Part shown: positions 42,604 to 63,065 of the stretch, one piece after another
Layout: every line of letters begins with the position of its first letter
Numbering within the stretch: position 1 is the stretch's first letter
Assembly (NCBI GenBank): GCA_045605805.1
Contig: JAZUQR010000027.1
Span: 32,001 to 96,000, forward strand
Length of the DNA: 64,000 nt
Origin: Alphaproteobacteria bacterium
GTDB taxonomy: Bacteria; Pseudomonadota; Alphaproteobacteria; CAAHEQ01; UBA3637
Reading direction: 5' to 3'
The notes under the pieces: model-generated
Told to the model about the DNA's origin: nothing
The model's database searches: none
The model's input: the letters and a program-made list of their open reading frames with translations, nothing else
Translations under genes and position numbers: made by a program

Positions 42604-43080
42604 CTATTCAATCACTTCCCCATCATATAATCCCCACATAAAACGACGAGGAAACCATCCTTCTAATTGTTCGTTTTCATAATTAAACTGCAACAAGCAA
42701 TAATCTCCCGCCGGGCAAGAATGAACTTTTGCCACTACACCTGGCTGAACATAAGCAATCACACGAGAAGAAACAGACGGCCCTGCCAAAAGTTTATCTT
42801 CGGATTGAATCACCACATAGCGCACCTCTTGCAACGCCCGTTGATGCATCCAACCAATGGTTCCATCAGCCTCACGCACTTGAAGCCAATGTTCAAAGCT
42901 GTCAATCACCTCAAAGGGATAATATCTTTCTTGATACACCCATTTAATGGGAAAGCGTTCAGCTGGCCCCGCCCGTAAATTGACTTTGTCATACCGCAAA
43001 GAACGAAAGCCTTGCTCTTGAGCATAAGCACACACCACAAAAAACATCATCAATAAACACAAAAACCTAAAAATCTTCAT
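42604..43080 (-). CDS. Exported tandem SH3-domain protein (SH3_4 type)
   Basis: Signal peptide; SL..DKVNLRAGP..FPIKWVY and W.QVR..DG..GW. Confidence 0.85.
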   Translation of the reverse strand: MKIFRFLCLLMMFFVVCAYAQEQGFRSLRYDKVNLRAGPAERFPIKWVYQERYYPFEVIDSFEHWLQVREADGTIGWMHQRALQEVRYVVIQSEDKLLAGPSVSSRVIAYVQPGVVAKVHSCPAGDYCLLQFNYENEQLEGWFPRRFMWGLYDGEVIE

Positions 43081-43636
43081 GTTTTATTTCCCCTGAGAAA
43101 CGGTGGCGAATGCTTTTTTGCGGGCGTCGGAACGAAAACATTTTATCTTGGCTTTCTTCCTGTATTTTTTCATGCAAACCCGCATTTTCCAAAATCACTT
43201 TTTGCTCATCCGTCACAGCCCCACGCTCCTGTCCATCCGAAAAGTCTTTCCAAGCCACCTGAACAGCAGGCATGACCACCAATTGAGCAATTCTATCCCC
43301 CCGATGTAATACAACCAAATGAGAAGAAGTATTTTGCACCAATACCGCCAATGGCCCTCTATCAGCCGGATGAACAAGCTGAGGCGCATCCAAAACAACC
43401 AGTCCTTCTTTTTGAGCCATATCAAAAGTACTGACCACAAAACCGCAATAACCTTCCGGCACACCAACAGCAAAACCAACCGGCACCAACGCCCGATCCC
43501 CTGGTTCCAAACGCAAAGCCGAAGGAATAGCAGCTTGAAGATTCAATCCCATATGATAAGGCGAATGATAACTGGGCAACGGCAAATCGTTTCCATCGGC
43601 AGTACGCATAATAGATAAACTTAAAACCTTGGTCAT
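43067..43636 (-). CDS. dUTPase-fold protein lacking catalytic motifs (pseudo-dUTPase)
   Basis: LPLPSY, LEPGDRALVPVG and GDRIAQLV retained; motifs 1, 2, 3 and 5 altered. Confidence 0.75.
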   Translation of the reverse strand: MTKVLSLSIMRTADGNDLPLPSYHSPYHMGLNLQAAIPSALRLEPGDRALVPVGFAVGVPEGYCGFVVSTFDMAQKEGLVVLDAPQLVHPADRGPLAVLVQNTSSHLVVLHRGDRIAQLVVMPAVQVAWKDFSDGQERGAVTDEQKVILENAGLHEKIQEESQDKMFSFRRPQKSIRHRFSGEIKHEDF

Positions 43637-43644
43637 ACCTCTCC

Positions 43645-44628
43645 CTATGTAATTGCTGTAATTGCCCGAATATTGCCATCCCGATTGATTTGCACCACAC
43701 GCAGTTTTTCTTTCATTTCTTTATGAGTCTTTTCCTGATCCAAAGCCGGATTGGAATGCATAATCCGAGAAATAAAAGCCTGATAAGCAGCCTCAGGATT
43801 TTCGGCGTGAATCGTGGCAAAACAATTTTCATGCCCCGAGTTCATCAACTCCCAAATAGCCCCGGCATTTGTGGTAGAAATCTCTCCTCCAATAATGGCA
43901 TCAGGCGTAAAACGCACAACCAAATCCACCACTTGTTTATAATCAAACTTGTTGTTTGCTTCTGTACGAGCCAACACCAAATGCACTCGGTTGGGTTGAT
44001 GCACAATCAATTCACGGGTATCCTCAATCGTAATAATACGCTTATGTTCATCCAAAATCTTAAGCATATTATTCAAAAAAGTCGTTTTACCGGTAGCCGT
44101 TCCCCCACTGATAAGAATATGATCCCCCCGTTTAATAGAAAGCAGTAAACGGTCATAAGGATCATCCGGATCTTCCACATTTTTTAACCGATTTACTTGA
44201 CGCAACCGCCCGCCTTGAACAAGGCCAAATTGATCCAATTTAATATCCACATCCGGTTTATAAACACGAATATCCAAGGCAACGCCACCTTCCAAATCAT
44301 CATCATCATATTTCACATTCTGGCCAATAATGCCTGCAAAACGATGGCCCCCTGGAAGTTCAGTATAAACAGCCGGCACGCCCACTTCTTCTCCAAAGGG
44401 TTTGTCTTGACTGTTGGAAATGATATACATCAAATTACGCAAATACTCCCGTGTCAATTTTGGGTCTTCGTAATAATGCCACGGATGAGCATGTCTGCCC
44501 CGTAAACGCAACCAAATCCCCCCTGGGTTATTCACAGCAACATCTTCCACATTATCCTGTGAATACCAATAAGCCAAAGGTTTCAATACCATTTCTAAAA
44601 TGCGTTGCGATTCCGGCCGTTTTCCCAT
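43645..44628 (-). CDS. virB11: VirB11-family T4SS ATPase
   Basis: Walker A GGTATGKT, Asp box TIEDTRE, Walker B PDAIIGGE and His box TIHA. Confidence 0.9.
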   Translation of the reverse strand: MGKRPESQRILEMVLKPLAYWYSQDNVEDVAVNNPGGIWLRLRGRHAHPWHYYEDPKLTREYLRNLMYIISNSQDKPFGEEVGVPAVYTELPGGHRFAGIIGQNVKYDDDDLEGGVALDIRVYKPDVDIKLDQFGLVQGGRLRQVNRLKNVEDPDDPYDRLLLSIKRGDHILISGGTATGKTTFLNNMLKILDEHKRIITIEDTRELIVHQPNRVHLVLARTEANNKFDYKQVVDLVVRFTPDAIIGGEISTTNAGAIWELMNSGHENCFATIHAENPEAAYQAFISRIMHSNPALDQEKTHKEMKEKLRVVQINRDGNIRAITAIT

Positions 44629-44638
44629 AATTTACTCC

Positions 44639-47600
44639 TTAAAAATAACGATCATCGTCTTGATAAATAGGAGGAGAAACAGGATCAACCTTTCTGTCTT
44701 CTGTATCCTCTGGTACATAGATTTTGTCTGATTCCTCTTGCTCTTCCTCTTGTTCCTCCGTTTCTTCTTCATCAGATTTTGTTCTTTTTTCCACCCAAGA
44801 ATCATTCACAGAAGGCAATTGCGCAGCACTTGGATCACCAAGTCCTTGATCTTCCAAATCTTCCACATCATCATCCACCGAACGCAACCATAAATCCGTA
44901 TTGGAAAAAGCGGTTAAACGAGTTCCTGATGGCACATACAAAATGTTTGGAACTTCACCAGACATTTCCATAAGTTGGCCCCAAATATCCTTAAAATTAT
45001 CAATAAACATTTTGCGTATTTGAGACCCAGGAGTTTCAGATGTCGTTGTGCCATTACTAGCCGTTGAAGAAGAAGCAATCACAGATTTTTCGTTCAGTTC
45101 AGTCAATTTCAAAACAATAGCTTCACCAATACTGCTGCCCACAGGCAACAAAAACTTCCGCATCAACTGCATATCCAAATAAGCGGCCACACCCCCTCGT
45201 CCTTGTGCATCGCCCGAAACGGCTTCAAACTTAAAGGCAGCCCCATCAGGACGAATCAACCGATTCCAAGAAATATCAATTTTGGCGGCTTGATCTGTGC
45301 CAAACTCCATGGCTGAACCAGACAATGAACCAATCAACCGACTGCCGGCAGGAATCAAAATATTGCGTCCTTCTTCGGCATAAATATGTCTTTCCACAAT
45401 GGCCGTCACAGGGGCAGTTGGATATCGGGTATCAATAGAACGCACTAATACCGCCGGAATAGCCTTATCAGCCAACAACACTCTGGACATATCCACAGAC
45501 CATGTAGAAACATTTTTATCCACATCCACACTTGACCAATCCTTGTCTTTTTTGCCTTTGGCTTTGGCTTGAATGGCTTTGCCAGGAAGAATCGTTGGAA
45601 CAGACCCCATTTTTTCCTTCATTTTAAGGCGTCTCTTTTTTTGTAAATCCAAAAATTGCTCTTTAACTTCATCCGGAATCACTATTTCTTTTGGGGGTGG
45701 TGGCGGCTCTCGGTATTCAGGACTTGTTTTATCAGTCTCCCAAATATACGGACGCAGAGTAGAAGGATCCCACGCCCCAACAACCTTACCCTCACCATTC
45801 ACAAGCATTCCTGTGTCTGGATCAATTTCATATGTCTTGCCCCCCCAAGTGATTTTGCGACCACCCGCTCTTTCACCAATAGACGCCAGCCCACAACGTC
45901 TTAAATCCATGCCAAGCCCCCGGAACCATCCATAATCCGTTCCATCCGGATTATAAACCTTTCCATCTGTTGTGGAAGTTAAAATAATATCACCGGCCTC
46001 ATCACGGATATTTCCGTTGGCTTCCAAAAGCCCCATCTTTTCTTCGCCTGGAATCTTAAACAATTCACAATTAAATAATCTGGCCACCGGCTTGTTGGTT
46101 AAATCATATAGCAACACATAGTCATTCTCATCTCCAAACCCTGGCAATGTGTTTCCATACTTATCAGTCATTGTGCCTGTTGTTTGGTTATAGTATCCCA
46201 TAGAAGTACCGTCTCCAGTTTTAACCTCACCGTCTATGGATATTGTATAATCTAAAGTACCACCCGGATTAAAAATCAATCTATCTTCGTTGGAAGCCAT
46301 CCAACCAATTTTGTTACCGTTAAAATCATAGGCGTCATCATTATCCAAACCACCAATCGTTCCTTGAGGTTTACCATCTGTCCCCACAACACGGCCCATA
46401 GCGTCCACACGCCCAAACATCACTTTGTCGTTGTTAAACACAGGACCACGAGCTCTTAACCGCCCAATTGGTTCACCATTGGCATCACGCAACAATTTAT
46501 CACGTCCCACACAACCAACCACAACGCCATCCGGATTCACCACAGTTGAATCGGGTAAAGTGCGCCCCAAATATACCCCTTTTTCGGAAGTAATCGGCCC
46601 ATAACGCACAATAAAGCCCAACTCTTTACCCATAGGATCGGTAGCCACACCTTTTGGCTGCATCCGGCCAATCACATTGCCTTGACCATCCACAACCGTT
46701 CCATCATAGGCAGTTTGTCCAATAACCTTGCAAGAATTATCCACAACCAAAGTTTCTGGAAGAACACCACCCACTTCTTGCAACTTATCTTTCAAAGTTT
46801 GTGCCTCTTCAAAAGTCAAAGGAAGAGCCGCACCATTGCTGGCAAGTGCAGCAACTTCTTCGCCCGCTTCATTCACAACTTTTCCCAAACCATTCACAAA
46901 TCCCAACACAGAATTAGACAAACTCAACACAGGCAAAAACGGAACAATCTGCCCTTCCAACGGCCGTTCCTTGCCCAAAATAGTGGCATCATCCAAAATC
47001 TGATATTTCACAGAACCAGAAGCATCAATCAAATGACCATCCACGGTTGTGCGCCCTAAAACAGAAGGATTATATCCAACCGGCACCCCTTGAACAACCA
47101 AATGCCCCACATAAGGCATGGTATTATAAACAGCCGGCTCCGACACACCCGCCACACTGCCATCCGGCAACACACGCCCTTTGAAGTTCTTATCAAACAT
47201 CACCGAACCATCAGCCGTCACAACCCCAACTTTTTGGGCATAGTCATCCACAACAAACCCTGTTTTCAAAGGTCCGCCTGCCCAAATTGTTTCAGGTGTT
47301 AAAACCGAAGAAAACGCCATACGAGAACCGATTTTCTGACCATTCACACCCCACACCTGCGCACCAAAACCGGATTCTCCAATTTTTTTGCCAGCTTTGT
47401 CAATAATCGTTTCAGCATTAAAAATACCACCAATCAAAGAGCCACCTTGTTCAACAAACCCATTACCAAAAGAAGTACCAATAACTTTGCCCCCCAACCA
47501 AACAGCACCTGTCCAATCCTCCATACCAAGACTCTTTAAGTTATGTGAATTGGCAAATCCAATCTGAGCCGAAGTCCCAACAACCATTTTATCAGAATCC

Positions 47601-50600
47601 ACAATAAAATCGTTCATCATCAATTCCCCCACGGAACGATTTGTTTGTGGTTTATAAACCAGACTGTCCCGACCAACAACACCCATCAAAGAGGAAGAAG
47701 TTAAACCTCTGGCAAATGGGTTTGTACTATGAATACGCCCCACAACAGACCCTTTGTTCATCACATAATCTGGGGCTGCCACAGTGCCGATTTGACTGCC
47801 GGAAGCCGACACAACAGAACCGGTTTCTGTCATAATACCACACATTTTTTCATCTTCATTCAAAGAATATGCTCCAAACGGCACATAGCCGCCCAAAATT
47901 GTGCCTGCAATGTCATTCACACGATTGTTAAAGGCAACCCGCCCAACAACAGCGTTCATATTCATAACAGAGCCATTAAAGCCGGTCCATCCCATAACTT
48001 CCCCGGTGGCATTCAGGGCCAAACCATTCAAAAGAGGCCGCCCAATTAAAGAAGAATCCGCATTGGTTAAATAAGGCATCTGATTGTATGTCATACCCAT
48101 AAAACCGTTTCCATTATAAATCCCGCCATCAGGGGCCACACGGCCAATAAATAAACCATTTTTATCAACAACCGTTGCATTTTTCACCACAGTACCAACA
48201 ATTTTACCGGCAGCATCAAACACAAAACCATCCACACCCAATTGCCCAACAGTTTTGCCTTCACCATTTTCAACATCACCGTTAAAGCGTACAAATCCCA
48301 TAAAATGGCCATCCAAATCAACAACCATACCCAAAGGAAGAGCCGTACCAACCAAGCGACCATCTACACCCAAAACAGTGCCAAAACCAGACACAGCCCC
48401 AACATATGAAGCATTTTTGTCAAATACAGAAGCCTGATATTGCATACTGTTTTCTGTGGAAGCATCCGGCACAACAAAACCAATCACACCGGCCGAAGAA
48501 ACAACCACAGAGGTTTTATTCCACAAGGCGCCAACCACACGATTATCCGGAGTCACCGCAATTTCATTCGGTAACAAAGAGGCCACCTTAGTCCCATCCA
48601 TCATCACATCCCCTTTGATGGAAACCATACCAACATAATCACCAGAAGAAGATAACACAACCCCTTCACCCAAAACACCACCCATCAATTCATTATTGGA
48701 ATTATACACAGCACCATCTGCCAACACTTTTCCAATCACTTGACCAGAAGCATTGACAACCTGCCCTCGGGCATCAAACCGTCCCAACACAGCTCCTTTG
48801 AAATCCGCAAAATAAGAATCCTTTGGAAAAGCTCGTCCCACAATGCGTGTGGCTGTCATATCTAACACAGTACCATCCGGCATTAAACGCCCCAAGGGTT
48901 TGTTATCCACAGAAAGAGCTTGCCCCATAAAGGCATTATAAGTTCCAATAAGCCGACCATTCATATCAAAAATAAAACTATCCGGATGAACCAAACCAAC
49001 AATTTGGCGGGCCTTATTCAATACCCAACCATTCAAGGTTTGAGTTCCAACTTCGTTCTGTTGCGTATCCATACATTTGGAAGCCTTACAAGTCCAACCG
49101 GTGAATAGACCAACATCATTCAACACAGCCCCATTATAAGTACGAGTATCACCTTGCGAACTTGTGCCGTTTGAATTGACACAACCAATAACCTTGCCAT
49201 TCTTATCAATAATCTGGCCATCATAGCGCACCCGACCGGAAAAATCACCTTTTGGTGAAAACAGCGCCCCTGTTGGTGTTAAAACCCCCAAAGATTGTCC
49301 ATTTGCAGCCAGCGGTTCTTTTTCAAGATTGATACAGCCAATGACATTTCCTTTTTGATCAATCACCTGCCCCGACAAAGACAAAAGCCCCATCAAACGA
49401 CATCCTTCTGCCAAAACCGTCCCACGGGGAACAACAACACCCATCACCACAGAAGAGTCATTTAGTGTATATCCGTCCGAACGCACCTTTCCAATGGGTT
49501 GCAACGCAATTGTCACAACCGAACCATCTGGATAAACACTGCCCAAAACATTACAAGAATTACCCACCACACGACCTTTTTGTAAAACACCACCCAACAC
49601 TTGTTTGTCTGTATAAACACTGCCATCTGGTGCAACATTCCCCATAAGACTTCCCTTGCCATCCACAGCTTTCCCTTCGGAATTGACAAAGCCCAACACA
49701 TTTCCATCCATATCCACAACCAAGCTGTTGCCAATGACAGCCCCAATTGTGTTCATATTCGCATCTACCACATCACCATTGGGCATCACACGCCCCACAA
49801 CTTGACCATAAACATCTTTAACCGATCCATTCAAAGAAACTTCACCAAACGAACGACCGCCCAAACCAACAGCGATACCTTGCTTAACCACAGAACCAAC
49901 CAAAACGCCATTAGTATTCACAATAAAACCATTTTGTTGCAAAAAACCTTGAACCTTTTGTTCCGAATCAATCACAGCACCGGTTGGTAAAACAATACCC
50001 AAAACATTGCCTGACAAATCCATGGCCATTCCCCAAGAACGCAACACCCCAATTTGAATGCCAGCATCATCAAAAACAGTTTGATCCACCCGAGGCGTAC
50101 CAATTTTTTTGCCGGCCCCATCCACAACTTTCAATTCATTAGTCGCCTTATCAACCGTCAACTTACCCACAACAGCCCCTTTTGAATTGATAACCGAAAC
50201 CAAAGGAATGGCCGCCCCAAGCACATTAAAATCCGAATCCACAACGGTATTATCCAATAATAAACGCCCTACAAGCTTACCCTCTTTGTCTTCCACCGTC
50301 CTTGAATCGGTCACAAAACCCAAAAACTCATTTTTCAAATTTAACGCCACAAGTCTTGGTTCTGTCACACCCAGAACTTCCCCCTCGGGATTTTTAACAA
50401 TCCCTTCCTCAGGCGGTTCAGCCCCCTCTGGCAACTCTACTTCTGTACCATCAGGCAACACATAAATCGGTCTTGGCTTTTTTTCGGGTTTATTTTCAAC
50501 ACCACAATTTTCACAACAAACACATTCTTTGGAATCAATAGCTGTTCCCTTTAAGGTAATCTGACTCCGTTCATCCTTCAAAACACGGGAATTGTCTTCA

Positions 50601-51100
50601 TGCCACACAATCGTCAAAGTATTTTGAATACTTTGCACTTTAACAGGTGTCCAAGAAACTTTCAATACACATTCTTCATCCACATCCAATTCGGTACGCT
50701 CCATACAATCGCCCGATAAAACAAAGCCATGTTCAGAAATATCCGCCAAATAGCTTTCCACAAAAACCAACGGGCCGTTTTCTGCCCTTAAAAGAACCGT
50801 AGCTTCAGCCGTAGCCCCCAACACAACATCATCAAATGCAACTTCCTGAGGAGAAACAACCAGCTGCGTTCCATCCACAGAAAAATCGGGCAATTTATCA
50901 TCATCAGAAACATCATCCCCGAAGGTATTTATCACATTAGCAGAAACAGGCTCAGTTTGAATCAAATCAACAGGTTGTTCTTTCGGAGCGGAACACAGTA
51001 CCACAAAAAACAAAATCACAACCAACAGTCCAAACAAAGATAAAATCCATGTGGTTCTGCGTTTTGATTGTGCGGATAAACTTTCGTGACTTGTTGCCAT
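44639..51100 (-). CDS. virB10: Giant VirB10/TrbI-family protein with Ig-like domain and ~1550-aa repeat region
   Basis: N-terminal TM; C-terminal TrbI domain (IPAVL..SID, ILIPAGSRLIG, W.RLIRPDG, D..GR.G, VPSGTR); lies between virB9 and virB11. Confidence 0.88.
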   Translation of the reverse strand: MATSHESLSAQSKRRTTWILSLFGLLVVILFFVVLCSAPKEQPVDLIQTEPVSANVINTFGDDVSDDDKLPDFSVDGTQLVVSPQEVAFDDVVLGATAEATVLLRAENGPLVFVESYLADISEHGFVLSGDCMERTELDVDEECVLKVSWTPVKVQSIQNTLTIVWHEDNSRVLKDERSQITLKGTAIDSKECVCCENCGVENKPEKKPRPIYVLPDGTEVELPEGAEPPEEGIVKNPEGEVLGVTEPRLVALNLKNEFLGFVTDSRTVEDKEGKLVGRLLLDNTVVDSDFNVLGAAIPLVSVINSKGAVVGKLTVDKATNELKVVDGAGKKIGTPRVDQTVFDDAGIQIGVLRSWGMAMDLSGNVLGIVLPTGAVIDSEQKVQGFLQQNGFIVNTNGVLVGSVVKQGIAVGLGGRSFGEVSLNGSVKDVYGQVVGRVMPNGDVVDANMNTIGAVIGNSLVVDMDGNVLGFVNSEGKAVDGKGSLMGNVAPDGSVYTDKQVLGGVLQKGRVVGNSCNVLGSVYPDGSVVTIALQPIGKVRSDGYTLNDSSVVMGVVVPRGTVLAEGCRLMGLLSLSGQVIDQKGNVIGCINLEKEPLAANGQSLGVLTPTGALFSPKGDFSGRVRYDGQIIDKNGKVIGCVNSNGTSSQGDTRTYNGAVLNDVGLFTGWTCKASKCMDTQQNEVGTQTLNGWVLNKARQIVGLVHPDSFIFDMNGRLIGTYNAFMGQALSVDNKPLGRLMPDGTVLDMTATRIVGRAFPKDSYFADFKGAVLGRFDARGQVVNASGQVIGKVLADGAVYNSNNELMGGVLGEGVVLSSSGDYVGMVSIKGDVMMDGTKVASLLPNEIAVTPDNRVVGALWNKTSVVVSSAGVIGFVVPDASTENSMQYQASVFDKNASYVGAVSGFGTVLGVDGRLVGTALPLGMVVDLDGHFMGFVRFNGDVENGEGKTVGQLGVDGFVFDAAGKIVGTVVKNATVVDKNGLFIGRVAPDGGIYNGNGFMGMTYNQMPYLTNADSSLIGRPLLNGLALNATGEVMGWTGFNGSVMNMNAVVGRVAFNNRVNDIAGTILGGYVPFGAYSLNEDEKMCGIMTETGSVVSASGSQIGTVAAPDYVMNKGSVVGRIHSTNPFARGLTSSSLMGVVGRDSLVYKPQTNRSVGELMMNDFIVDSDKMVVGTSAQIGFANSHNLKSLGMEDWTGAVWLGGKVIGTSFGNGFVEQGGSLIGGIFNAETIIDKAGKKIGESGFGAQVWGVNGQKIGSRMAFSSVLTPETIWAGGPLKTGFVVDDYAQKVGVVTADGSVMFDKNFKGRVLPDGSVAGVSEPAVYNTMPYVGHLVVQGVPVGYNPSVLGRTTVDGHLIDASGSVKYQILDDATILGKERPLEGQIVPFLPVLSLSNSVLGFVNGLGKVVNEAGEEVAALASNGAALPLTFEEAQTLKDKLQEVGGVLPETLVVDNSCKVIGQTAYDGTVVDGQGNVIGRMQPKGVATDPMGKELGFIVRYGPITSEKGVYLGRTLPDSTVVNPDGVVVGCVGRDKLLRDANGEPIGRLRARGPVFNNDKVMFGRVDAMGRVVGTDGKPQGTIGGLDNDDAYDFNGNKIGWMASNEDRLIFNPGGTLDYTISIDGEVKTGDGTSMGYYNQTTGTMTDKYGNTLPGFGDENDYVLLYDLTNKPVARLFNCELFKIPGEEKMGLLEANGNIRDEAGDIILTSTTDGKVYNPDGTDYGWFRGLGMDLRRCGLASIGERAGGRKITWGGKTYEIDPDTGMLVNGEGKVVGAWDPSTLRPYIWETDKTSPEYREPPPPPKEIVIPDEVKEQFLDLQKKRRLKMKEKMGSVPTILPGKAIQAKAKGKKDKDWSSVDVDKNVSTWSVDMSRVLLADKAIPAVLVRSIDTRYPTAPVTAIVERHIYAEEGRNILIPAGSRLIGSLSGSAMEFGTDQAAKIDISWNRLIRPDGAAFKFEAVSGDAQGRGGVAAYLDMQLMRKFLLPVGSSIGEAIVLKLTELNEKSVIASSSTASNGTTTSETPGSQIRKMFIDNFKDIWGQLMEMSGEVPNILYVPSGTRLTAFSNTDLWLRSVDDDVEDLEDQGLGDPSAAQLPSVNDSWVEKRTKSDEEETEEQEEEQEESDKIYVPEDTEDRKVDPVSPPIYQDDDRYF

Positions 51101-51110
51101 TGATAAATCC

Positions 51111-53717: not shown

Positions 53718-53784
53718 AAAACTTCCTCCTTTTGCCAAACATATAACTAATTTAACACAAACAAAAAAAATATCAACAAAAAAA

Positions 53785-54402: not shown

Positions 54403-54413
54403 AGCAATTCTCC

Positions 54414-55580
54414 CTACAAAGGCTTGCAAAAATCAAAATTACCTTGAAGGCTTTGTGCCTGTTGTACACTTTGATTGACCATTTTTTCCGACTCTGTTTG
54501 CAGGGCAGAAATCATCTTGCGATGCGAAGTATTTTCAGCCATTTTCTGTTCTACCTCAAAAGCATTGGTTTCGGTCAAGAAAACAATACCGTTTTCATCT
54601 TTTTCCATCGCATCAATCAACACTTGTTGTCGTGCCTGTGGCGAATACTGGTCAAAACGCTGCATTTCGGCAAAAGCCTCAGGGAATTGAGATTCAACTG
54701 CTGACAACACCTGTTGTTTGGTTTTGGAACGGGTATTGCGACGAGCCGCAGCCTTTGGATACTTTTGATCTTGCAAATTTAATTTTTCAACATACGCCTT
54801 TGCCTCTTCCAAATAGACAGATTTTAGGCTCTGTAAAGATTTGCGCACTTGACGCACCTCTGACACCTTTTTGGGATCAAACGCAGGCATCTGAATACCC
54901 ACCTTGGATAATTTAGCCACAAAATCAGAAATCATTTTTTTATAAGTTTTTTCAAAATCTGATTGCGCTATCCCCATATTGTGTTTTGAATCATCTGCCA
55001 GAACAAGTTCTTCCAAACCAAAACCAACGAGATTTTCTTTAAGATCTTCCGGTACCTTCCGCTTTTTCTTATCAACAGGTTCCGCCCCCCATTTTTTGTT
55101 ATTTTCAAGGGTGTCTGTAATCAAAGCAACCTCAATATTCTTTTTGCGTTCCAACAAAGATTGGCGATCCAATGCAGAAGCGGGAAAAATGCTGTCAGGC
55201 GCATAAACCCTGTTGGATTGCATATTTTTGGTCTGTTCTTTATAAGCCGCACTAACCTTTTTCAAAACCTCTGATGCATTCTTAAACCGACCAAAGCGTT
55301 TTTCATTACATTCAAAAATCTCATCAAAATAGCTTTGAGCCTCTTTAACATTTTTCAACAGCTGATCATGTTGTTCGGCAAGCGTTTGCAAATCCGGCAA
55401 TTGAGTCATCAAATTATGCACATCCAAAGCCTTGTATAACGAGTCATTATGCTCAGGCAGAACCTTGGTTAAAGTCCGTGTTTCAATTTTAATCACAGGA
55501 GGAGCCCCAAAGCGAAGTGCCTCAGCACTGGTGCTAATCAAAACAAAAGAACAAACACAAATCAATAAAGTCTTTTTCAT
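54414..55580 (-). CDS. Exported coiled-coil hypothetical protein in the T4SS cluster
   Basis: Signal peptide (..SAEA), helical, 388 aa. Confidence 0.7.
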   Translation of the reverse strand: MKKTLLICVCSFVLISTSAEALRFGAPPVIKIETRTLTKVLPEHNDSLYKALDVHNLMTQLPDLQTLAEQHDQLLKNVKEAQSYFDEIFECNEKRFGRFKNASEVLKKVSAAYKEQTKNMQSNRVYAPDSIFPASALDRQSLLERKKNIEVALITDTLENNKKWGAEPVDKKKRKVPEDLKENLVGFGLEELVLADDSKHNMGIAQSDFEKTYKKMISDFVAKLSKVGIQMPAFDPKKVSEVRQVRKSLQSLKSVYLEEAKAYVEKLNLQDQKYPKAAARRNTRSKTKQQVLSAVESQFPEAFAEMQRFDQYSPQARQQVLIDAMEKDENGIVFLTETNAFEVEQKMAENTSHRKMISALQTESEKMVNQSVQQAQSLQGNFDFCKPL

Positions 55581-55583
55581 TTT

Positions 55584-56642
55584 TTATTGCCCTCCTCCTG
55601 CAGAAAATTCAGGTCTGTTATCATTTCCAACAATTTCAAGTTCTTTTTTCAATGGCTTGAAATCAAGTTCCAAAGTTTCGGCCCGCACTTTTGTTCTGAC
55701 GGCTAAAACATTCATTTTCAAAAGCATTAAAGAATCATATAAAGCCCGTCTGGTTGCCAAAGTGTTCAACGCTTGGTTTTTGGAATTATATTGTGCCTGT
55801 ATCTTGGCATCCATCTCTGCCAAAGAAGATAACTGACGTTTCAATTCCATTGCCGAAGCCATAGCCTTAATACTGCGCTGTTGCGCCCGATAACGAATTG
55901 CCCGTTGTTCTTTGGCCACATTTTGTAAAGAACGTTGATCTTCCAAAAGTTCATTTCTGCGATATTCCATCAATTCACGAGGCGAAGCAGACGAAGCATC
56001 CTGCAAGTTTTGATACATATCTTTATCAAAAGACACTGCCTGCAAACGAGTTGGATCAATACCCAATTTATCCATAATCGCCACAATCAAATTTCTATCA
56101 GCCGGCCCAATCCATTTATCAGTCACATGGCCTTGAACCCCCGCAAAATCGGCCGTGATTTTGGTTGAATCACGCATAAACTGGTTCACCGCCGCATGTC
56201 CCAATTGAGAAACGCCAGATAACCCATCCAAAGTAATGCCCAACCCAACCCACGCAGATTCAGCATGAATAGGTGCTTGCGCTGTAGTTGTAAGGGTCTG
56301 ACTCATTTTCCAAGAAGGAAGATACTGTTTCAGCTGTTGAATCGGCCAGCCCACTGCCATACCAGTTAATGGTGTAGACAGTGCCATATCCACCATAGCC
56401 GCTGAATCACCAGCATCGCTAGAATAATCTGCACCACCAGCCGTATGTTCCACTGGAGTGGCTTCAGGATTTGATTCAGGTAAATCCTTTGAAGTATCAA
56501 AGGCCTGCGCTCGTGAAGTATCCGCTAGTGATTCTCTAGTTTCTCTACCCACTAGGAATTCTGTAATTCCAGCAGTCACCGGCATCACCAAAACACCGTT
56601 TAGCAAAGAAATCGCACAAACACCTAATAATAATTTTTTCAT
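55584..56642 (-). CDS. Exported protein with VirB5-like helical C-terminus
   Basis: Signal peptide; C-terminal ~100 aa share a pattern with neighbours. Confidence 0.6.
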   Translation of the reverse strand: MKKLLLGVCAISLLNGVLVMPVTAGITEFLVGRETRESLADTSRAQAFDTSKDLPESNPEATPVEHTAGGADYSSDAGDSAAMVDMALSTPLTGMAVGWPIQQLKQYLPSWKMSQTLTTTAQAPIHAESAWVGLGITLDGLSGVSQLGHAAVNQFMRDSTKITADFAGVQGHVTDKWIGPADRNLIVAIMDKLGIDPTRLQAVSFDKDMYQNLQDASSASPRELMEYRRNELLEDQRSLQNVAKEQRAIRYRAQQRSIKAMASAMELKRQLSSLAEMDAKIQAQYNSKNQALNTLATRRALYDSLMLLKMNVLAVRTKVRAETLELDFKPLKKELEIVGNDNRPEFSAGGGQ

Positions 56643-57487
56643 GCACCTTCTCCTTCTTCATCATCGGCCACATCACCTGCACCTGCCTCACCTGCACCGG
56701 CATTATCGGCCTCATCTGTTGCCGCCACATCTTCTTCTGTCATCAACAAAATGGGTTGAACACTTAAAAACTTGGCCGCATCCAGTTCCATCAATTGTAT
56801 CTGCATCACAATATCCGCCATCAAGGCCCGATTGATTGCCTTCCATGTCTGGTCCGTTCCGGAAGTCGCCCCAATAGAGCCATCCCCGTTGATATCAGAA
56901 GAAACCACATTCATATCCTCAATCAACTTTTCTTGAACGGTATAAGCCGTTTTAACATATTCCTTGGCAATTTTGGTTAAATATTTTTCTCGTTCTTTAC
57001 GAATAGCCTCCTGTTTTTCTTCTGTGGCATCGGCATTATTTTCCAAAAAGAACATCTCCTTCACAACTTGCTCCATATCGGCCGAATCAGTCAGTTTTTT
57101 ATTCAAAGGCGAATAAGGCGTTTTAATTTTATCGGTTAAATAGGTATTATGTAAATAGGTATAAGTATCCAAGGGCATAGTGCCGGAATCTGGTTTGCCT
57201 GTCCCTGGTTCAGACACATACGAAGTGGTACCATCCACCAAAGCCCCAACATCGGCCTGTGTCACATTTAACCTCGCCCCCATTTCGGGCTCTTCCCCCA
57301 AGGCCAGCAAATTTAGAAGAGCCGATCCCGTGTTACGCACAGAGTCAGTAATTGATACAGGATCTGATACTTTGTCAGGCACCACCTTCATCGTCTTAGG
57401 AGGAAGGTCCGCCCCCCACACATCCGAAACATATACGGAAGATAAACATCCCAAAGCAATCAAAAAACGAAACATAAAACTTTTCAT
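56639..57487 (-). CDS. Exported protein with VirB5-like helical C-terminus
   Basis: Signal peptide (..DVWG); TEEKQEAIRKER..A..QLMELDAAKFL. Confidence 0.6.
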   Translation of the reverse strand: MKSFMFRFLIALGCLSSVYVSDVWGADLPPKTMKVVPDKVSDPVSITDSVRNTGSALLNLLALGEEPEMGARLNVTQADVGALVDGTTSYVSEPGTGKPDSGTMPLDTYTYLHNTYLTDKIKTPYSPLNKKLTDSADMEQVVKEMFFLENNADATEEKQEAIRKEREKYLTKIAKEYVKTAYTVQEKLIEDMNVVSSDINGDGSIGATSGTDQTWKAINRALMADIVMQIQLMELDAAKFLSVQPILLMTEEDVAATDEADNAGAGEAGAGDVADDEEGEGA

Positions 57488-58344
57488 TCTGTATCCTCCT
57501 TCAATTCAGAAACATCCACACGATCAATACCGCTGAAAATGATATTTCGATACGATTGCGCCCGTAAATCATCGGCATATAAAAATAACATATCCACCGC
57601 AGCCGAAGAAGCATAAACCGATAAATCGCCCAAACCGGCTCCAACGAATTCCGCCAAAGTCTCTTTGGCAGCCACACTGTTCACCAATTTTTCCAAATTA
57701 TCATAATTGGCATCCACATCCTGTAAATAAGAATCCGCCATACTGGATGCGGCCGTGGATGAAGCCACCAAAACCTCGTTTTGCCGTGCCTGAGCACATT
57801 CAGAAGGTTCACACTCTTCACCGGTTCCCACCGAACAGACGCAATCTTGGTTCACAGCCAAATCATCCGATACAAACATATACGAAGCCACATTCTCACG
57901 CACCCGATCAAAAGTATCGCCTTTTTTACCCATTTTATCCTTGGCATCTTCCCCCAAAACCAAAGTACCATCTTCTTCACTTTGTGTAATAATGGCAATT
58001 GTGCTGTCTGGGATAGACATAGCCAATTCTTCTGCCTTCATAATTTCTTCTTGTGCAGATTCGGGCGTTTTGGTATCACATCCTGAATTGCCGGTTGCCG
58101 ACACGCCACAATGGCCTTGCTCACGATACATCCCAATGTTTGTTTGCAACTTTTCTAACCCATTTGTCACATCATAATGAATTGTTTCCTGCTTACGATT
58201 CCATTCCCGTGCCATATAACCAAACGTCGTTTCCATAGCAGTCTGATAAAGACAACCAATAGATGGACACCAACTGGCTGCATAACAAGGGGCAGCACCA
58301 AGCAACCCTATACATCCCACCGAAACAAATAAAAGTTTTCTCAT
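57484..58344 (-). CDS. Exported Cys-containing protein with VirB5-like helical C-terminus
   Basis: Signal peptide MRKLLF..CYA; ARQNEVL..A.S.A..LEKLV. Confidence 0.6.
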   Translation of the reverse strand: MRKLLFVSVGCIGLLGAAPCYAASWCPSIGCLYQTAMETTFGYMAREWNRKQETIHYDVTNGLEKLQTNIGMYREQGHCGVSATGNSGCDTKTPESAQEEIMKAEELAMSIPDSTIAIITQSEEDGTLVLGEDAKDKMGKKGDTFDRVRENVASYMFVSDDLAVNQDCVCSVGTGEECEPSECAQARQNEVLVASSTAASSMADSYLQDVDANYDNLEKLVNSVAAKETLAEFVGAGLGDLSVYASSAAVDMLFLYADDLRAQSYRNIIFSGIDRVDVSELKEDTE

Positions 58345-58360
58345 AATCGTTCCCCCTTTG

Positions 58361-59467
58361 TTATTCAACCATCTGCAACGCACTGGCCGCTTCATTGGCC
58401 ACCTGTTGACCTTGCACCATATTCAACAAGTTCAATCGTTGAGCCAAAGTTAAATCCAAGCTCACCAAAACTTTTGTGTTGGCCACAACACTGCCCCCGC
58501 CCGATCCGATATAAGTAGAAAGGCGGTCAAATTGTGCTTTTTCCGAAGCCGCAAGACTGGAAGCCAAATCAGCCCGAGCCACACCAGCCGTCCCCACCAT
58601 TTGAATGTGTGCTTTTCGTCTGAAATCAGCCTTGCGCTTTTCCTCCTCAGTCATTTGATCAGAAGGGTCACTGCTGTTGAAGGAACCACCAAAAACCGAG
58701 TAATCTGAAAAAGCGGATTGCATAGAAGACCCAAAGTCTGTGATATAACCACTCCAAACAACAGAAGAATTAGATGTTTTATTGGTATCCGTGGTTATCT
58801 CTTGTAATTCGGCAGTTTTTGTGCCAAAACCCGCCTGAATCACCGGATTAGCCCCAATCAACTCTTCGGCTTGTGTTAAAGGGCTTTCGGCCACATCTTC
58901 CAAAGCCTCTAAGCCCACATTTTTCAAAGTGGAAACATGCACTTCGGTTTCATCCAAAGTTGCACTGACCATATTACAGAAAAAACCGCCTGTACCACCC
59001 GATTCTTTAATTTTTTCACATTCGGATTCAATACTGCCCAAACTACCAATATGACGAATCTGAGACTGTAATTCCGGAATATCTTTACTCCATTGGGCCT
59101 CTTTCGTGCGGGCATCATTTAATTGCACAATATCCAAAGATGCCCCCGCCACATCCCAATTCAATCCAAAAGTATCTGAACCAGTAAATACATAAGGAGT
59201 AGGCTCTCCTTCAGGAGTCACAACAACTCCAGGCTTCGATATAGAAAAGTGTGCCTGCACGAAAGAAGTCACACCAGTAATGAAACCCCAGGCCGCCAAT
59301 CCTTGACTTAATGCCTTTTGTGCTTTGGCCGTACCAGAAGAAACTTGGTTGGTTGCCAAACCACCTTGTTGCCACACCTCACCTTCTTCGGCCACGGCCA
59401 CCATCACACCGCCCGACACGCCACACAACAGCAATGCTGACATCAAAAGTTTTTTACTGAATTTCAT
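58361..59467 (-). CDS. Exported protein with VirB5-like helical C-terminus
   Basis: Signal peptide (..AVA); TEEE..RR..A.A..NTKVL..QQVANEAASALQ. Confidence 0.6.
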   Translation of the reverse strand: MKFSKKLLMSALLLCGVSGGVMVAVAEEGEVWQQGGLATNQVSSGTAKAQKALSQGLAAWGFITGVTSFVQAHFSISKPGVVVTPEGEPTPYVFTGSDTFGLNWDVAGASLDIVQLNDARTKEAQWSKDIPELQSQIRHIGSLGSIESECEKIKESGGTGGFFCNMVSATLDETEVHVSTLKNVGLEALEDVAESPLTQAEELIGANPVIQAGFGTKTAELQEITTDTNKTSNSSVVWSGYITDFGSSMQSAFSDYSVFGGSFNSSDPSDQMTEEEKRKADFRRKAHIQMVGTAGVARADLASSLAASEKAQFDRLSTYIGSGGGSVVANTKVLVSLDLTLAQRLNLLNMVQGQQVANEAASALQMVE

Positions 59468-62400
59468 TATCAACCTCCCGTTCATTCAACAACCGAGCCG
59501 CTTGCACACCCATTTGGGCCGAAGACAAAGCCACAGCACGCAAACTTTCAAGCAAGACATAGCGCCCCACATCCTGAGTCAAGCCAAACGCCCCCGCTTC
59601 ATTTTGCACACCTTCCGAGAAAGAAATCAACACATTGGCCCGATCAGCAAACTTGTTGGACACAGCGTTCATTCCTTCGGAAATCTGCACCGCCGCATTT
59701 ACATATTGTTTCAAAAGCATTTGGCGTTTTGCCTGAATCAAAGCCACCTGTTCATCGGTCAGATATTTCTTTTCATCCTCTGGTTTTTCCTCTTTTTCTT
59801 CTTCTGGCACTTCCAAAGAGGCAGAAGTCCCCGCTTGTGAGCCAGCACCAGCCAGTGTACCGGTTTGAACCACCGTTTTTGCTTCTTCTTCTTCAAAAGT
59901 TTCATCCAAAAGTTTCAAATCCACATTGGCGTTCTTTAACAATTCGGCCACAACCATTGCCGACCCCGACACAGTGCTGGGCATAGAAGCATCCACATCC
60001 ACATCCGACAAAGCCGTGTCATCCACAGTCCCCACAGCGGCACCAATCTCACCGGCCAAAACGTTCACATCCTTCCGCAAAGCAAGCTCTGTTTCCGTCA
60101 CGAACGGTGTCATAGCCACCGTACCAATCCGCACCAGATCCTGTAAATCAACCTCCCGTGGGGTTTCTGCGCCTTGTTGAACTTGATTCACCTCTGCCTC
60201 TTTGGCATCAGCTTCCGCTTTCGTCCCCTCAACAGTGGCAATTTTGTTATTAAGTTCCTCGAACTCATCGGAAGAAATCGTTTTATTATTCAAAGCATCA
60301 TACGCCAACGATCTGGCAGTCTCAAAGTCACTGCTGTTTATCGCATCAGCAAACTGATTGCTCCGAACTGTGTCATTCCTAAAGAAGTTTTCAGCAGTCG
60401 ATAAAGCAGCGCTCTTTGCTATTGTATAGTTCTTCTTCGCAGCAGTCACTATGGAATCCAGTTCAGTTATAGTAGCATTATACTTATCTATATCACCCTT
60501 TCCATCTTCTTTGGCTTTTCCTAACGCTTTCTGCGCTTCACCAAGTTCCTCTCGCGCTTTTTGAATTTCTTTCTGTGTTCCTTTCGTCACAATTAGTTTT
60601 TTCACCTTAGCCTGCGCCTCATCCACTTTTACCTGTGCCGCATCAATAGCATATTGTCTATACCTATACTGATTCGTATTTTGCGCATGGTCTTGCAACA
60701 AGCTTTGATAGCCTTTTCCGCCATTAACACTAGATAGCTGATTTATATAGTTCATAATATCAGCCCCAAAATCGTCTTCTTTTCCAGAAAAACGAATTTG
60801 CTGATTCGCTGAATCAAAAGTAATGCCATACAGATTCTTCAATGTTGCTGCTTGTTCACTTGTCATGGTATAACCATTATCCGACCAACCAAGATCCTCC
60901 CCACCCAATAAATTGCCTATCGCACTTGCGTTGTCGTGGTTCAAATCGGAATACAAAACCGCATCACCGGCCCCCATATCTGCTGCGTCCGTCAATATTT
61001 GGTTGGAGCGATTCACAATAGCATCAGAGTTTTTCTTAACTTCCTCATATGATATTTCTTCAACATTACCTTCGGCGTCAAGTTTTACGCCAGAGTCATT
61101 TTTCTCGTCGCCATCTTGGGCTTCTGCCCCTGCCTTTGCGCCACCTTCTTTGTCTTGATTTATGCTAGCCGTTACCTTTTTTTCCTCCTTTGGGTCCTCC
61201 GCTTTGGCTATATTTTTAGTTTTGGTCCCGGCCGAATCTGCATTAGCAAATTGTGTTGCTTCGGCCTTTTTGTCCGTCGTCTCATCAATCACTTCCCCTT
61301 CAGATTGAGCCGTCACTGCCTCTGGTGTGGCAACCGCGTTAATTTTTAAGCTTGATGAATCCCCGTCTTTAGTAGGGGGGACACCGCCTTGTTGAGCAGG
61401 GGGCTCATCCCCTTTCCCATCCACCTTTAGCGTTGCTACACCATTTTTGGCTTCTACTTTTGCGTTAACTCCTACAGAGCCATCCTCAGACGTTGTCTTA
61501 GCCTTCACCTGATTCTCGTTCAGCGAAGCACCAGTCCCTGTTTCAGTCCTCTTGGCTCCCACACGACTTTCTCCTGTTTCGTACCGACCAGTAGTTTGTC
61601 CATCCTTAGTCTGGGCCACATAACTACCATTGGTAAATTCTACAACAGACGAACCATCGGAAAAAACACTAACGCTTTTAACATCGTTCAAATGACTTCC
61701 ATCACCCATGATTGCCGACACGTCTGCCTGTTGTACCAAATCTTTATGCCAGAAACTTCCCGAATCCCATTTGTTCTTGCTCTCATCCCAGGTGTATGAA
61801 CGCCCATCAACGGTGATAGTCTTACTGTCGCCAGCCGTAAAGACCTCATAAACACCCCCATTTACCACAACATACTTACCCTTTGGTACTGGAGGAAGGG
61901 TTGCTGCAGATGTTTGCGAGGATGAAATAGTTGGTATTGTTCCGTCTTGTATAATCGTCTCATTCCGGGCATTGGTTTCCAACGTCACGGTCTTGTTTTG
62001 ATTGCTCAGACCTTGCTTAGCACCATCAGCAGTCACTGTCTGCCCTGTTTTAGATGTCTTTCCATTATTCGTATTGGTAGAAGTCTGTGTAACCTCATTA
62101 GCAGTAATATCCTGATTCTGTTCGCTGGAACTACCATTGCGATTATTCAGGTTCTGACTAGTCTTCACATTGTCCAGTGTCTGATTAAAAGAGCCACCTC
62201 CCTTTCCTGCTGCTGATTCCACCCTCCACGTACCTGACACTTCTTTCTCCCCTGGCCTCAAGGTCACAGAAGCATTCGCCTTCCCATCATTGGCCTTTGC
62301 AGTCAGACTATTGTCTCCCATATAGGCCGAAGCCGTTGCATTAGAATCAGCACTTATACGATTCTCCATACCAACTTTTATTTCATTTCCGCTTTTATCC

Positions 62401-63065
62401 GTATAAGATCGGGCTACAACAGTCCCTTTACCAGTGTCACCCACTGCAACCTGCGAAGGGGGAACATAATTATTTTTCCCCTCTGTTCCTTGCGCAGGAT
62501 AATATATCTTTGCCGCACCATTTACTGACTCCACATAGACATAACCAGATTGATTCTTCTTAGTGGGATCAGTTGTGACAGTCCAAGAACGGCCAAGAAC
62601 ACCACCAGCCTCCGTCACATTCACAGCGTTTGTAATATTTTGTCTGCCAGCTTCATATTGAGTCCCTTGATAGTTTATATACCGAGCTTGAGAAATCCCA
62701 CCAGAAGCGTCCCTATGATAAGTGTTGCCATTCACTGTTGTAGATGTTTCATCGTCATAAAAATTCACAACAGTCATATTACCCTTACCATTGTTCGGAT
62801 TCACCACATATGTTTGTAGTTTCACCGGACCACTGGATGAAACACGCCCATATCGTCTAGCTGTTTCATTGGCAGTATAATAACTGCCCTGTTTTAATTC
62901 TGCCGCCTTATGTGTGCTATAATAATGACCATTGGCACCTTTATACAATGTTTTACCGTTTGCAAATTGCACTTTTTCAACCTTTGCCCACACATCATTC
63001 GGCAACAACACACAGGCACTGGCCAAAACCGTGCCAACAAGCAAGACTTTAACGAAATTTCGCAT
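59454..63065 (-). CDS. Large exported adhesin-like protein with VirB5-like helical C-terminus
   Basis: Signal peptide (..DVWA); 1203 aa with T/N/S/G-rich beta region, coiled coil and LTDEQ..KR..QMGVQAARLL tail. Confidence 0.65.
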   Translation of the reverse strand: MRNFVKVLLVGTVLASACVLLPNDVWAKVEKVQFANGKTLYKGANGHYYSTHKAAELKQGSYYTANETARRYGRVSSSGPVKLQTYVVNPNNGKGNMTVVNFYDDETSTTVNGNTYHRDASGGISQARYINYQGTQYEAGRQNITNAVNVTEAGGVLGRSWTVTTDPTKKNQSGYVYVESVNGAAKIYYPAQGTEGKNNYVPPSQVAVGDTGKGTVVARSYTDKSGNEIKVGMENRISADSNATASAYMGDNSLTAKANDGKANASVTLRPGEKEVSGTWRVESAAGKGGGSFNQTLDNVKTSQNLNNRNGSSSEQNQDITANEVTQTSTNTNNGKTSKTGQTVTADGAKQGLSNQNKTVTLETNARNETIIQDGTIPTISSSQTSAATLPPVPKGKYVVVNGGVYEVFTAGDSKTITVDGRSYTWDESKNKWDSGSFWHKDLVQQADVSAIMGDGSHLNDVKSVSVFSDGSSVVEFTNGSYVAQTKDGQTTGRYETGESRVGAKRTETGTGASLNENQVKAKTTSEDGSVGVNAKVEAKNGVATLKVDGKGDEPPAQQGGVPPTKDGDSSSLKINAVATPEAVTAQSEGEVIDETTDKKAEATQFANADSAGTKTKNIAKAEDPKEEKKVTASINQDKEGGAKAGAEAQDGDEKNDSGVKLDAEGNVEEISYEEVKKNSDAIVNRSNQILTDAADMGAGDAVLYSDLNHDNASAIGNLLGGEDLGWSDNGYTMTSEQAATLKNLYGITFDSANQQIRFSGKEDDFGADIMNYINQLSSVNGGKGYQSLLQDHAQNTNQYRYRQYAIDAAQVKVDEAQAKVKKLIVTKGTQKEIQKAREELGEAQKALGKAKEDGKGDIDKYNATITELDSIVTAAKKNYTIAKSAALSTAENFFRNDTVRSNQFADAINSSDFETARSLAYDALNNKTISSDEFEELNNKIATVEGTKAEADAKEAEVNQVQQGAETPREVDLQDLVRIGTVAMTPFVTETELALRKDVNVLAGEIGAAVGTVDDTALSDVDVDASMPSTVSGSAMVVAELLKNANVDLKLLDETFEEEEAKTVVQTGTLAGAGSQAGTSASLEVPEEEKEEKPEDEKKYLTDEQVALIQAKRQMLLKQYVNAAVQISEGMNAVSNKFADRANVLISFSEGVQNEAGAFGLTQDVGRYVLLESLRAVALSSAQMGVQAARLLNEREVDNEIQ

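Follow-up and report, generated by a model that had tools for sequence, protein, structure and literature searches.

We analysed a 64-kb stretch of DNA (hereafter the window; C27:32001-96000) from the 1.21-Mb genome of an Alphaproteobacteria bacterium, which is assembled in 31 contigs and 98.85% complete. The window contains an operon encoding parts of a type IV secretion system (T4SS). Its 14 open reading frames (ORFs) occupy the minus strand between positions 63065 and 42604, are all intact and, in the ORF list, overlap or are separated by gaps of ≤52 nt (Table 1). In the direction of transcription, the order is E1–E2–E3–E4–E5–E6–VirB8a–VirB7–VirB8b–VirB9–VirB10–VirB11–dUTPase-like–SH3, where E1 to E6 denote six exported proteins. 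We scanned 49 ORFs of the window for protein families; NCBIfam models were applied in a separate scan. Pfam matches to VirB8, CagX, TrbI and T2SSE bear out the ~20-kb co-oriented T4SS operon proposed in a preliminary description of this sequence. As that description had also stated, no relaxase, VirB4, VirB6, VirD4 or integrase family found a match among the 49 ORFs, and the flanks are core genes, infC and carD.

The remainder of the window consists of housekeeping genes, and GC content is even along its length. Promoter and terminator scans of the locus gave matches at chance level overall. The hairpin between infC and E1 suggests that the operon is probably transcribed from a promoter of its own. 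Contigs from one metatranscriptome library, mostly 95-99% identical, match parts of virB10, virB9 and E5 and touch 22 of 30 bins, although DNA may be present in that library. Sequencing runs of animal gut or faeces, belonging to 10 studies, contain near-identical DNA. In all four runs mapped, read cover is absent over 61075-61741, within E1; such a hole proves nothing about hypervariability.

Table 1. Operon genes, flanking features and secretion genes elsewhere in the genome. Positions are those of the window unless a contig (C) is named. Loci are the best 80 of 355 relative-encoding stretches (417 candidates, one genome per species), several of them cut by contig ends. Identity is the mean to the five nearest loci.
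Feature	Position	Strand	Description and evidence	Identity (%)
infC	63201-63767		Flank upstream of E1	
Terminator-like hairpin with T-run	63148..63181	−	13-pair stem between infC and E1; weak, whole scan at chance level	
E1	59454..63065	−	1203 aa, exported, first operon gene; signal-like N terminus; relatives in 20/80 loci (jackhmmer)	37-44 (range for E1-E6)
E2	58361..59485	−	374 aa, exported; relatives in 14/80 loci; Met at 59467 probably the real start	as E1
E3	57484..58395	−	303 aa, exported, Cys-containing; single copy, 45/80 loci, always preceding E4	as E1
E4	56639..57487	−	282 aa, exported, predicted divergent VirB5 (family of minor pilins and tip adhesins); 52/80 loci	as E1
E5	55584..56642	−	352 aa, exported; single copy, 57/80 loci; also in families f39 and f24	as E1
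E6	54414..55580	−	388 aa, exported, always directly upstream of virB8a; single copy, 62/80 loci; also in f39, f108 and f24	as E1
VirB8a	53785..54429	−	Divergent VirB8 paralogue, NPxG motif retained; Pfam VirB8 E 2e-3 (weak)	44
VirB7	53541..53804	−	Lipoprotein, 87-aa ORF, lipobox VLAAC, motif LKKSPCAC; assigned by lipobox, position and homology	73
VirB8b	52822..53526	−	Canonical VirB8; Pfam E 1.6e-16	55
VirB9	51111..52769	−	CagX/VirB9 residues 94-343, Pro/Gly/Ala-rich linker, C-terminal SPOR ~470-552	68
VirB10	44639..51100	−	Giant, 2153 aa; Pfam TrbI, seven Bflower_2 stretches, ASH	49
VirB11	43645..44628	−	ATPase, Walker A GGTATGKT; Pfam T2SSE; NCBIfam VirB11 150.7 bits, under cut-off 249.95	86
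dUTPase-like	43067..43636	−	189 aa, no signal peptide; Pfam dUTPase; NCBIfam 91.6 bits vs cut-off 103; 17/80 loci, genus-level group only	57
SH3	42604..43080	−	Exported, two bacterial SH3 domains, last operon gene; SH3_4 E 4.6e-17, SH3_3 E 2.5e-11; 17/80 loci, genus-level group only	69
carD	42048-42557		Flank beyond SH3 gene	
VirB4	C27:222720-225170		PF03135 42.8 bits, over cut-off; TIGR00929 E 2.9e-108, under cut-off; Walker A present	
VirB3-like	overlaps virB4 start		105 aa, two transmembrane segments; 30% identical (E 1e-8) to annotated Microvirga VirB3	
VirB2	C27:24324-24662		Pilin gene; TrbC over cut-off	
VirD4	contig C4		738 aa	
VirB6-like	contig C26		Three tandem polytopic ORFs; TrbL, one over Pfam cut-off	
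Third VirB8 paralogue	contig C24 (L118:8796-9614)		272 aa, NPLG motif; E 1e-18 to clade hidden Markov model (HMM); alone among housekeeping genes	

Giant VirB10 and the other structural proteins

VirB10 is about four times the usual size, in keeping with its earlier description as a giant scaffold. It begins with a cytoplasmic N terminus, a transmembrane (TM) segment (residues ~14-44) and an ASH/Ig-like domain (80-165). These are followed by ~1500 aa of Gly- and Val-rich β-hairpin (β-flower) units (residues 230-1790), about 15 β-flower domains' worth, then by a proline-rich linker (~1795-1810), the TrbI/VirB10 domain (1875-2072) and an acidic tail. The insert matches Bflower_2 in 7 stretches (E 1.9e-64), with 76 [DNEQ]xxG hairpin tips within residues 230-1790 versus 8 in the other 592 residues. 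The repeat unit gave 19 matches with E<1e-10, and no tandem repeats were found in virB10 at the DNA level.

Of 120 homologues listed for the repeat region, 117 have Bflower together with TrbI; where a name is given, it is 'TrbI/VirB10 family protein' or 'hypothetical protein'. Across cluster representatives, VirB10 sizes form a continuum down to the classical VirB10. The uncut proteins of related loci measure 2048-2676 aa, and two other families encode the giant VirB10 as a pair of neighbouring ORFs (L122:7851-15994; L123:5018-14995). There, the first ORF encodes the TM segment and repeats, and the second its own signal peptide, further repeats and TrbI. Owing to the one N-terminal TM segment and the signal peptide on the second half of the split protein, we tentatively place the β-flower array in the periplasm. 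These proteins show VirB10 to be capable of fourfold enlargement and even of division between two genes.

The β-flower fold (PF21784/PF21785) was defined in 2023, its function being not known according to the available part of the source (Durairaj et al. 2023, PMC10584680). With those proteins the VirB10 insert has in common the Bflower_2 match and the [DNEQ]xxG motif at hairpin tips. By contrast, the β-flower proteins described in that part of the paper consist of one small domain each, of 96 residues in the founding example, and some of them carry lipoprotein motifs, whereas here ~15 domains' worth lie inside a T4SS scaffold. The fold is now located within a well-understood machine, where its role is testable.

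Family profiles of VirB8a and VirB8b matched chains in the Protein Data Bank (PDB), the former VirB8/TrwG (E 5e-8) and the latter VirB8 (E 1.7e-14); single-sequence PDB searches with VirB8a, VirB8b and VirB9 reached only E 0.14 to 0.68. Translation of VirB7 likely starts at 53720, yielding a product of 59 aa. Its relatives are lipoproteins of 58-75 aa in 77 of the 80 loci, 62 of 78 family members carry a [KI]KSP..C motif, and the small lipoprotein preceding VirB8 on the Microvirga plasmid pMVF16-3 is 47% identical to it. VirB9 matches CagX (E 1.2e-16) and, at 20.7 bits against a cut-off of 21, SPOR; the SPOR match recurs in 7 of 10 family members scanned (best E 3e-6). Cys341 of VirB9 is invariant in the family alignment.

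Two further genes follow virB11. Trimeric dUTPases are defined by five catalytic motifs, I-V, all of which are present in the true Dut encoded on contig C21. In an alignment to this reference, motifs II, III and V are absent from the operon's dUTPase-like protein, and motif I has asparagine in place of aspartate; the same holds for its 10 orthologues (11 of 11 sequences), in agreement with the protein's earlier reading as degenerate. The protein ends in a conserved basic tail, SSRRxxKxxRHRF, which might serve as a signal for secretion. Its gene occupies the position that virD4 holds in related systems, and we infer that the product is a candidate VirD4 substrate or adaptor. A second gene of the uracil-DNA glycosylase family lies at 7896-8474 in the window. 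The SH3 protein at the operon's end, together with the SPOR domain of VirB9, suggests that the machine may be anchored to peptidoglycan. The genome contains two SLT-domain genes.

The exported proteins E1 to E6

Sec-type N termini of E1 to E6 were read from the sequences; a hydropathy scan flagged five of the six, and E4 was judged by eye. Pfam and NCBIfam scans assigned none of the six to a family. By blastp alone, each was found in just 6 to 25 of the 80 loci. Iterated profile searches found E3 to E6 at the counts given in Table 1, with E3, E5 and E6 always single-copy and E4 in one copy in 50 of its 52 loci, the other 2 having a second match. The order E3–E4–E5–E6–VirB8a is fixed in all loci except L084, where an extra E4-like ORF lies ahead of E3, and E5 and E6 precede VirB8a in loci of other families too. 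E1 and E2 are confined to a genus-level group. The identity range of the six lies near the values for VirB8a and VirB10 (Table 1), and they therefore evolve about as fast as the machine's periplasmic parts. The preliminary description had seen here a variable array with interchangeable tip proteins. This does not hold: single copy number, one order and a divergence like that of VirB8a and VirB10 point to E3 to E6 as collinear orthologues, not cassettes.

Pfam PF07996 matched 2 of the 52 E4 members scanned, which are 86% identical to each other, one of them with E 2.5e-6 (28.5 bits against a cut-off of 24.7). When E4 was compared by hhalign with the products of the genes that directly follow virB4 on plasmids of Erythrobacter, Microvirga and Paracaedimonas, probabilities of 83.6% (E 8e-6) and 94.9% (E 4e-8) were obtained. 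Five negative controls of the same test, with E3, E5 and E6, gave 0.2-4.3%, and E3 against the plasmid VirB5-position and next-gene proteins gave just 0.2-0.3%. These profile alignments identify E4 as a predicted divergent VirB5.

Other searches with the exported proteins gave little. Family profiles of E4 and E6 had no meaningful match in the PDB, and Pfam scans of all alignment members of E4, E5 and E6 returned no consistent family (16 members for E5). We took a SAPIS-gp6 match of E5, seen in 1 of 16 members, as chance. Paralogy among E1 to E6 was considered; hhalign gave weak C-terminal signals only, between E1, E2, E3 and E4 (E 0.0015-0.04, probability 1-17%), which we did not count. In a collection of 5.8 billion proteins, E6 has 18 homologues, none with a Pfam domain, and the single named one is a 'hypothetical protein'.

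The layout of these genes raises the question of cargo. Bordetella Ptl is a two-step secretion system, in which the ptx genes precede the ptl genes in one operon. Likewise, Sec might carry some or all of E1 to E6 over the inner membrane; after assembly in the periplasm, they would leave through the outer membrane as cargo of the T4SS. Six Sec-type proteins are indeed encoded directly upstream of the structural genes, co-oriented and with overlapping stop and start codons, and all except E4 are without a known family. This explanation is nonetheless an unlikely one. The genome encodes VirD4, which is superfluous for a periplasm-fed system; E3 to E6 have the copy number, collinearity across genera and rate of change expected of structural partners; and E4 resembles VirB5.

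Dispersed secretion genes and conservation of the locus

The T4SS genes are spread over five separate places of the genome. VirB4, VirB6 and VirD4 are encoded elsewhere (Table 1), so that their lack among the genes named in the preliminary description is an effect of the window. That description had proposed locating virB2, virB3, virB4, virB6 and virD4 as a check, and all were found, virB3 as a VirB3-like ORF. Tests for the components of a P-type (VirB/D4-like, MPF-T) system were positive for VirB4, the VirB7/VirB9/VirB10 core, VirB8, VirB6, VirB3, VirB2 and VirB5. When all 9505 frames of the genome were searched with clade-specific HMMs, three VirB8 paralogues and single copies of VirB7, VirB10 and VirB11 emerged. 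For VirB9, PF03524 matched once, whereas the clade HMM gave a single strong match and, on contig C21, a weak one (E 2e-5), presumed to be a SPOR protein. VirB4 has a single match in the genome.

The surroundings of these genes deserve description. Directly after virB4 lies a 654-aa ORF (C27:225174-227135; L003:11175-13139) with a type-IV-pilin-like N terminus and a very Cys-rich body. Its paralogues are found on C10, C3, C20, C8 and C18, the 1120-aa copy on C10 matching Ephrin_rec_like and TNFR-like Cys-repeat families; by these features, the group looks like giant Cys-rich pilins. The neighbours of virD4 are a gene for a membrane protein with a NERD domain and two small family-less ORFs (L117:3866-5014, 997-1632), whose products are candidate substrates or adaptors. 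The VirB2 pilin gene adjoins, on the opposite strand, a type IVb-pilus-like set (TcpQ, secretin, R64-type PilO, T2SSB-like, secretion ATPase and T2SSF) that extends over C27:24800-32000 into window positions 185-1309.

The vicinity of the VirB2 gene to type IVb pilus genes, the VirB5-like E4 and the fast evolution of the exported proteins would suit an adhesion-only device resembling Trw, in which variable surface filaments serve attachment and nothing is translocated. Trw is not known to contain VirD4 and has amplified pilus genes. Here, by contrast, the genome has kept VirD4, whose similarity to its relatives is close to that seen for VirB4 and VirB11, and the VirB2 and VirB5 genes are not amplified, E4 being present in one copy in nearly all of its loci. 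We give such a device a low probability.

In the related loci, the order VirB8–VirB7–VirB8–VirB9–giant VirB10–VirB11 is found in 80 of 80, as far as contigs reach, which answers the earlier proposal to examine synteny in related metagenome-assembled genomes (MAGs). By blastp, VirB8a is present in 76, VirB7 in 77, VirB8b in 77, VirB9 in 80, VirB10 in 79 and VirB11 in 69 of these loci. Their titles are nearly all 'Alphaproteobacteria bacterium' MAGs, many with gut or rumen sample names. A search of 41 relatives detected VirB9 in 28. Within the same family, 23 of 24 genomes have it; the exception is 59% complete.

Further afield, VirB11 was detected at E≤1e-25 in 43 of 401 sampled genomes of the class and at ≥60% identity in 18, from 9 families. 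Six loci from six of those families encode a giant VirB10 (1930-2831 aa as a single ORF; split in L122 and L123), and in none of the six does virD4 adjoin virB11. Five of the six have the order VirB8–(VirB7)–VirB8–VirB9; just one VirB8 was detected in the other, L125. In five further small-genome families, VirB11 is 38-42% identical. There, VirB10 measures 506-579 aa in 4 of 5 loci, and virD4 lies directly after virB11 in 4 of 5 and ~2 kb further in L131. The normal-sized VirB10 of distant small-genome Alphaproteobacteria starts with a lipobox-like sequence, for example LAACG (L129:14187-15926, L131:14486-16006, L133:14334-16049), and an extra lipoprotein is encoded directly after VirB9 in L131 and L133.

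An ordinary conjugative element (an integrative and conjugative element or integrated plasmid) or its decaying remnant has two points in its favour: among named relatives, plasmid clusters that carry MobA/MobL are the closest, and a tRNA-Met gene lies ~700 nt past the operon end. Against this, the relaxase families PF03432, PF03389 and PF08751 had no match at E≤0.1 in the genome, the 49 window ORFs contain no integrase, carD separates the tRNA from the operon, and no direct repeat pair bracketing 42.6-63.1 kb was found. Moreover, the genes are dispersed and intact, and the locus is kept across 9 families. That the locus is such an element or remnant is highly improbable, and the preliminary reading of the machine as non-conjugative and chromosomal is upheld by the relaxase result, the core-gene flanks, the lack of bracketing repeats and the presence of VirB9 throughout the family. 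Beyond carD, two direct repeats (40000-40186 and 41511-41818, 87-93% identical) enclose an M14-peptidase-like ORF and the lowest GC of the window (0.337), and the second repeat abuts the tRNA-Met gene (41813-41889). The segment 40000-41889 possibly represents a small insertion at this tRNA gene; carD lies between it and the T4SS operon.

A machine akin to ComB, taking up or releasing DNA, with import as a nucleotide source or for transformation, is likewise doubtful. ComB systems are not known to have VirB11 or VirD4, and both are present here. In support of it, the C-terminal domain of VirB10 scores near-equally with ComB10 (76.5 bits) and VirB10 (78.6 bits) models, and the window holds a gene for a ComEC competence channel (5470-7470). 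Furthermore, Rs-D84 genomes, among which the window genome has a putative place only, are without nucleotide synthesis (PMC12306168). The [KI]KSP motif beside a cysteine in VirB7 has been noted, in the available part of the source, for Rickettsia VirB7 and ComB7 (PMC2653234). However, the KKSPCAC motif is also present in VirB7 of the relaxase-bearing Microvirga plasmid system, and the motif is therefore specific neither to the Rickettsiales vir homolog (rvh) T4SS nor to ComB.

Proposed function and comparison with known systems

The locus is probably the principal structural islet of a P-type (VirB/D4-like) T4SS that is complete, domesticated, non-conjugative and dispersed over the chromosome. 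This T4SS would be inherited vertically within a large clade of gut Alphaproteobacteria with reduced genomes and would act as a translocator that depends on cell contact, is coupled to VirD4 and has a core enlarged in the periplasm. VirD4 would recruit cytoplasmic protein substrates, and VirB4 and VirB11 would power the machine. VirB7, VirB9 and the C-terminal domain of VirB10 would form the outer-membrane core, tied to peptidoglycan via the SPOR domain of VirB9. The periplasmic β-flower arrays (~1500 aa per VirB10), with E3, E5 and E6, may build a much enlarged cage or ring, and VirB2 and the VirB5-like E4 a surface filament or tip contacting the partner cell. The most likely function would be effector delivery into that cell.

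Several points weigh against this translocator. All T4SS matches fall under the NCBIfam equivalog cut-offs (VirB9 44 of 218 bits, VirB10 79 of 220, VirB11 151 of 250, VirB4 363 of 643 and VirD4 132 of 728), making confident transfer of function impossible; by these scores the system is a predicted divergent member of the superfamily, not an equivalog of characterised systems. The VirB3-like ORF, with no Pfam match, is the weakest P-type component; two of the three VirB6-like genes are under the Pfam cut-off; and the pattern used for the VirD4 Walker A found no match, leaving the motif unconfirmed. The relaxase search comprised just three families. No effector was identified, and the placement and roles given here to E3, E5, E6 and the β-flower array are putative. 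Ankyrin repeats surpass the cut-off in a single ORF and match weakly in four more, too few to argue for a eukaryotic partner. A TLC search matched none of the control genomes and so has no bearing on the question.

For a lineage like that of the window genome, whose membership in it is putative, partner-dependent life has been inferred from missing pathways, in a paper that mentions no secretion system (PMC12306168). A complete, conserved VirD4-coupled T4SS is concrete candidate machinery for such a life. A more speculative reading, to which we attach only a small chance, is that the β-flower array, with E3, E5 and E6, is a new kind of very large periplasmic or trans-envelope structure, the T4SS serving as a stable intercellular bridge by which these metabolically deficient gut bacteria would feed on a partner cell. 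If true, this would be the first biological role for the β-flower fold.

The literature searched on RF32, CAG-239 or Rs-D84/Enterousia secretion, on VirB10 with β-flower and on large VirB10 in gut Alphaproteobacteria yielded no description of this system. Its closest named homologues are megaplasmid clusters of Alphaproteobacteria (Microvirga pMVF16-3, Erythrobacter aureus, Sphingosinicella). VirB4 is 39% identical to that of pMVF16-3, 36% to Sphingosinicella, 35% to Erythrobacter aureus, 30% to Paracaedimonas acanthamoebae plasmids and ~25% to classical VirB4. The Microvirga relative matches VirB2, VirB3, VirB4, VirB7, VirB8, VirB9, the VirB10 C-terminal domain, VirB11 and VirD4 at 26-47% identity. 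In the plasmid clusters, the protein encoded after VirB4 is homologous to E4, and the KKSPCAC motif of VirB7 is identical. The Microvirga and Erythrobacter clusters are contiguous, in the order MobA/MobL, DnaB-like, VirB2, VirB3, VirB4, VirB5-position protein, further ORFs, VirB7, VirB8, VirB9, VirB10, VirB11 and VirD4, with two small ORFs between VirB11 and VirD4 in Microvirga. They differ from the present system in this contiguity, in the relaxase and DnaB-like genes, in a single VirB8 and in a VirB10 of 529-590 aa; homologues of E3, E5 and E6 were not detected in them.

A quick maximum-likelihood tree of VirB4 (25 rows, with no named rvh sequence) groups the window clade (9 rows, 7 families) with support of 99, its sister being two 0.9-Mb lineages (99). 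Next outward are the Microvirga and Erythrobacter plasmids (91, 92), then five other small-genome families (98). The plasmid systems thus branch between the window clade and the other small-genome lineages, although long branches make their positions unsure.

In Helicobacter pylori Cag, as here, the VirB10 homologue (CagY) is hugely enlarged by internal repeats, VirB9 (CagX) is large and extra system-specific subunits are present. Here, however, the enlargement consists of β-hairpin/β-flower units without DNA-level tandem repeats, and Pfam and NCBIfam scans gave no match to Cag-specific families.

In layout, the system resembles the rvh T4SS of Rickettsiales, whose genes are also scattered in islets. 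In the available part of the source (PMC2653234), rvh islet C has the order virB8-virB7-virB8-virB9-virB10-virB11, matched here except for virB9a and virD4. Both systems also share a duplicated VirB8 with one divergent copy, multicopy VirB6, a solitary virB2, the VirB7 [KI]KSP motif beside a second cysteine and an alphaproteobacterial host with a reduced genome. They differ in that here virD4 is not beside virB11, virB6 is not beside virB4, VirB10 is giant, VirB9 carries SPOR and E3, E5 and E6 are added. The available part of another source (PMC11077975) characterises rvh by five hallmarks: RvhB4, RvhB8 and RvhB9 are each duplicated, RvhB6 is multicopy and VirB5 is lacking. The present system has the VirB8 duplication (three paralogues) and the multicopy VirB6 (three), whereas VirB9 and VirB4 are not duplicated and a VirB5, E4, is present.

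The earlier claim of an undescribed system is only partly right. Gene order and islet scattering follow rvh islet C, whereas three of the five rvh hallmarks are lacking. A bold reading would trace this system and rvh to a single ancestral domestication that predates Rickettsiales. Neither the 'archipelago' layout known from rvh nor the virB8-virB7-virB8 arrangement is confined to recognised Rickettsiales.

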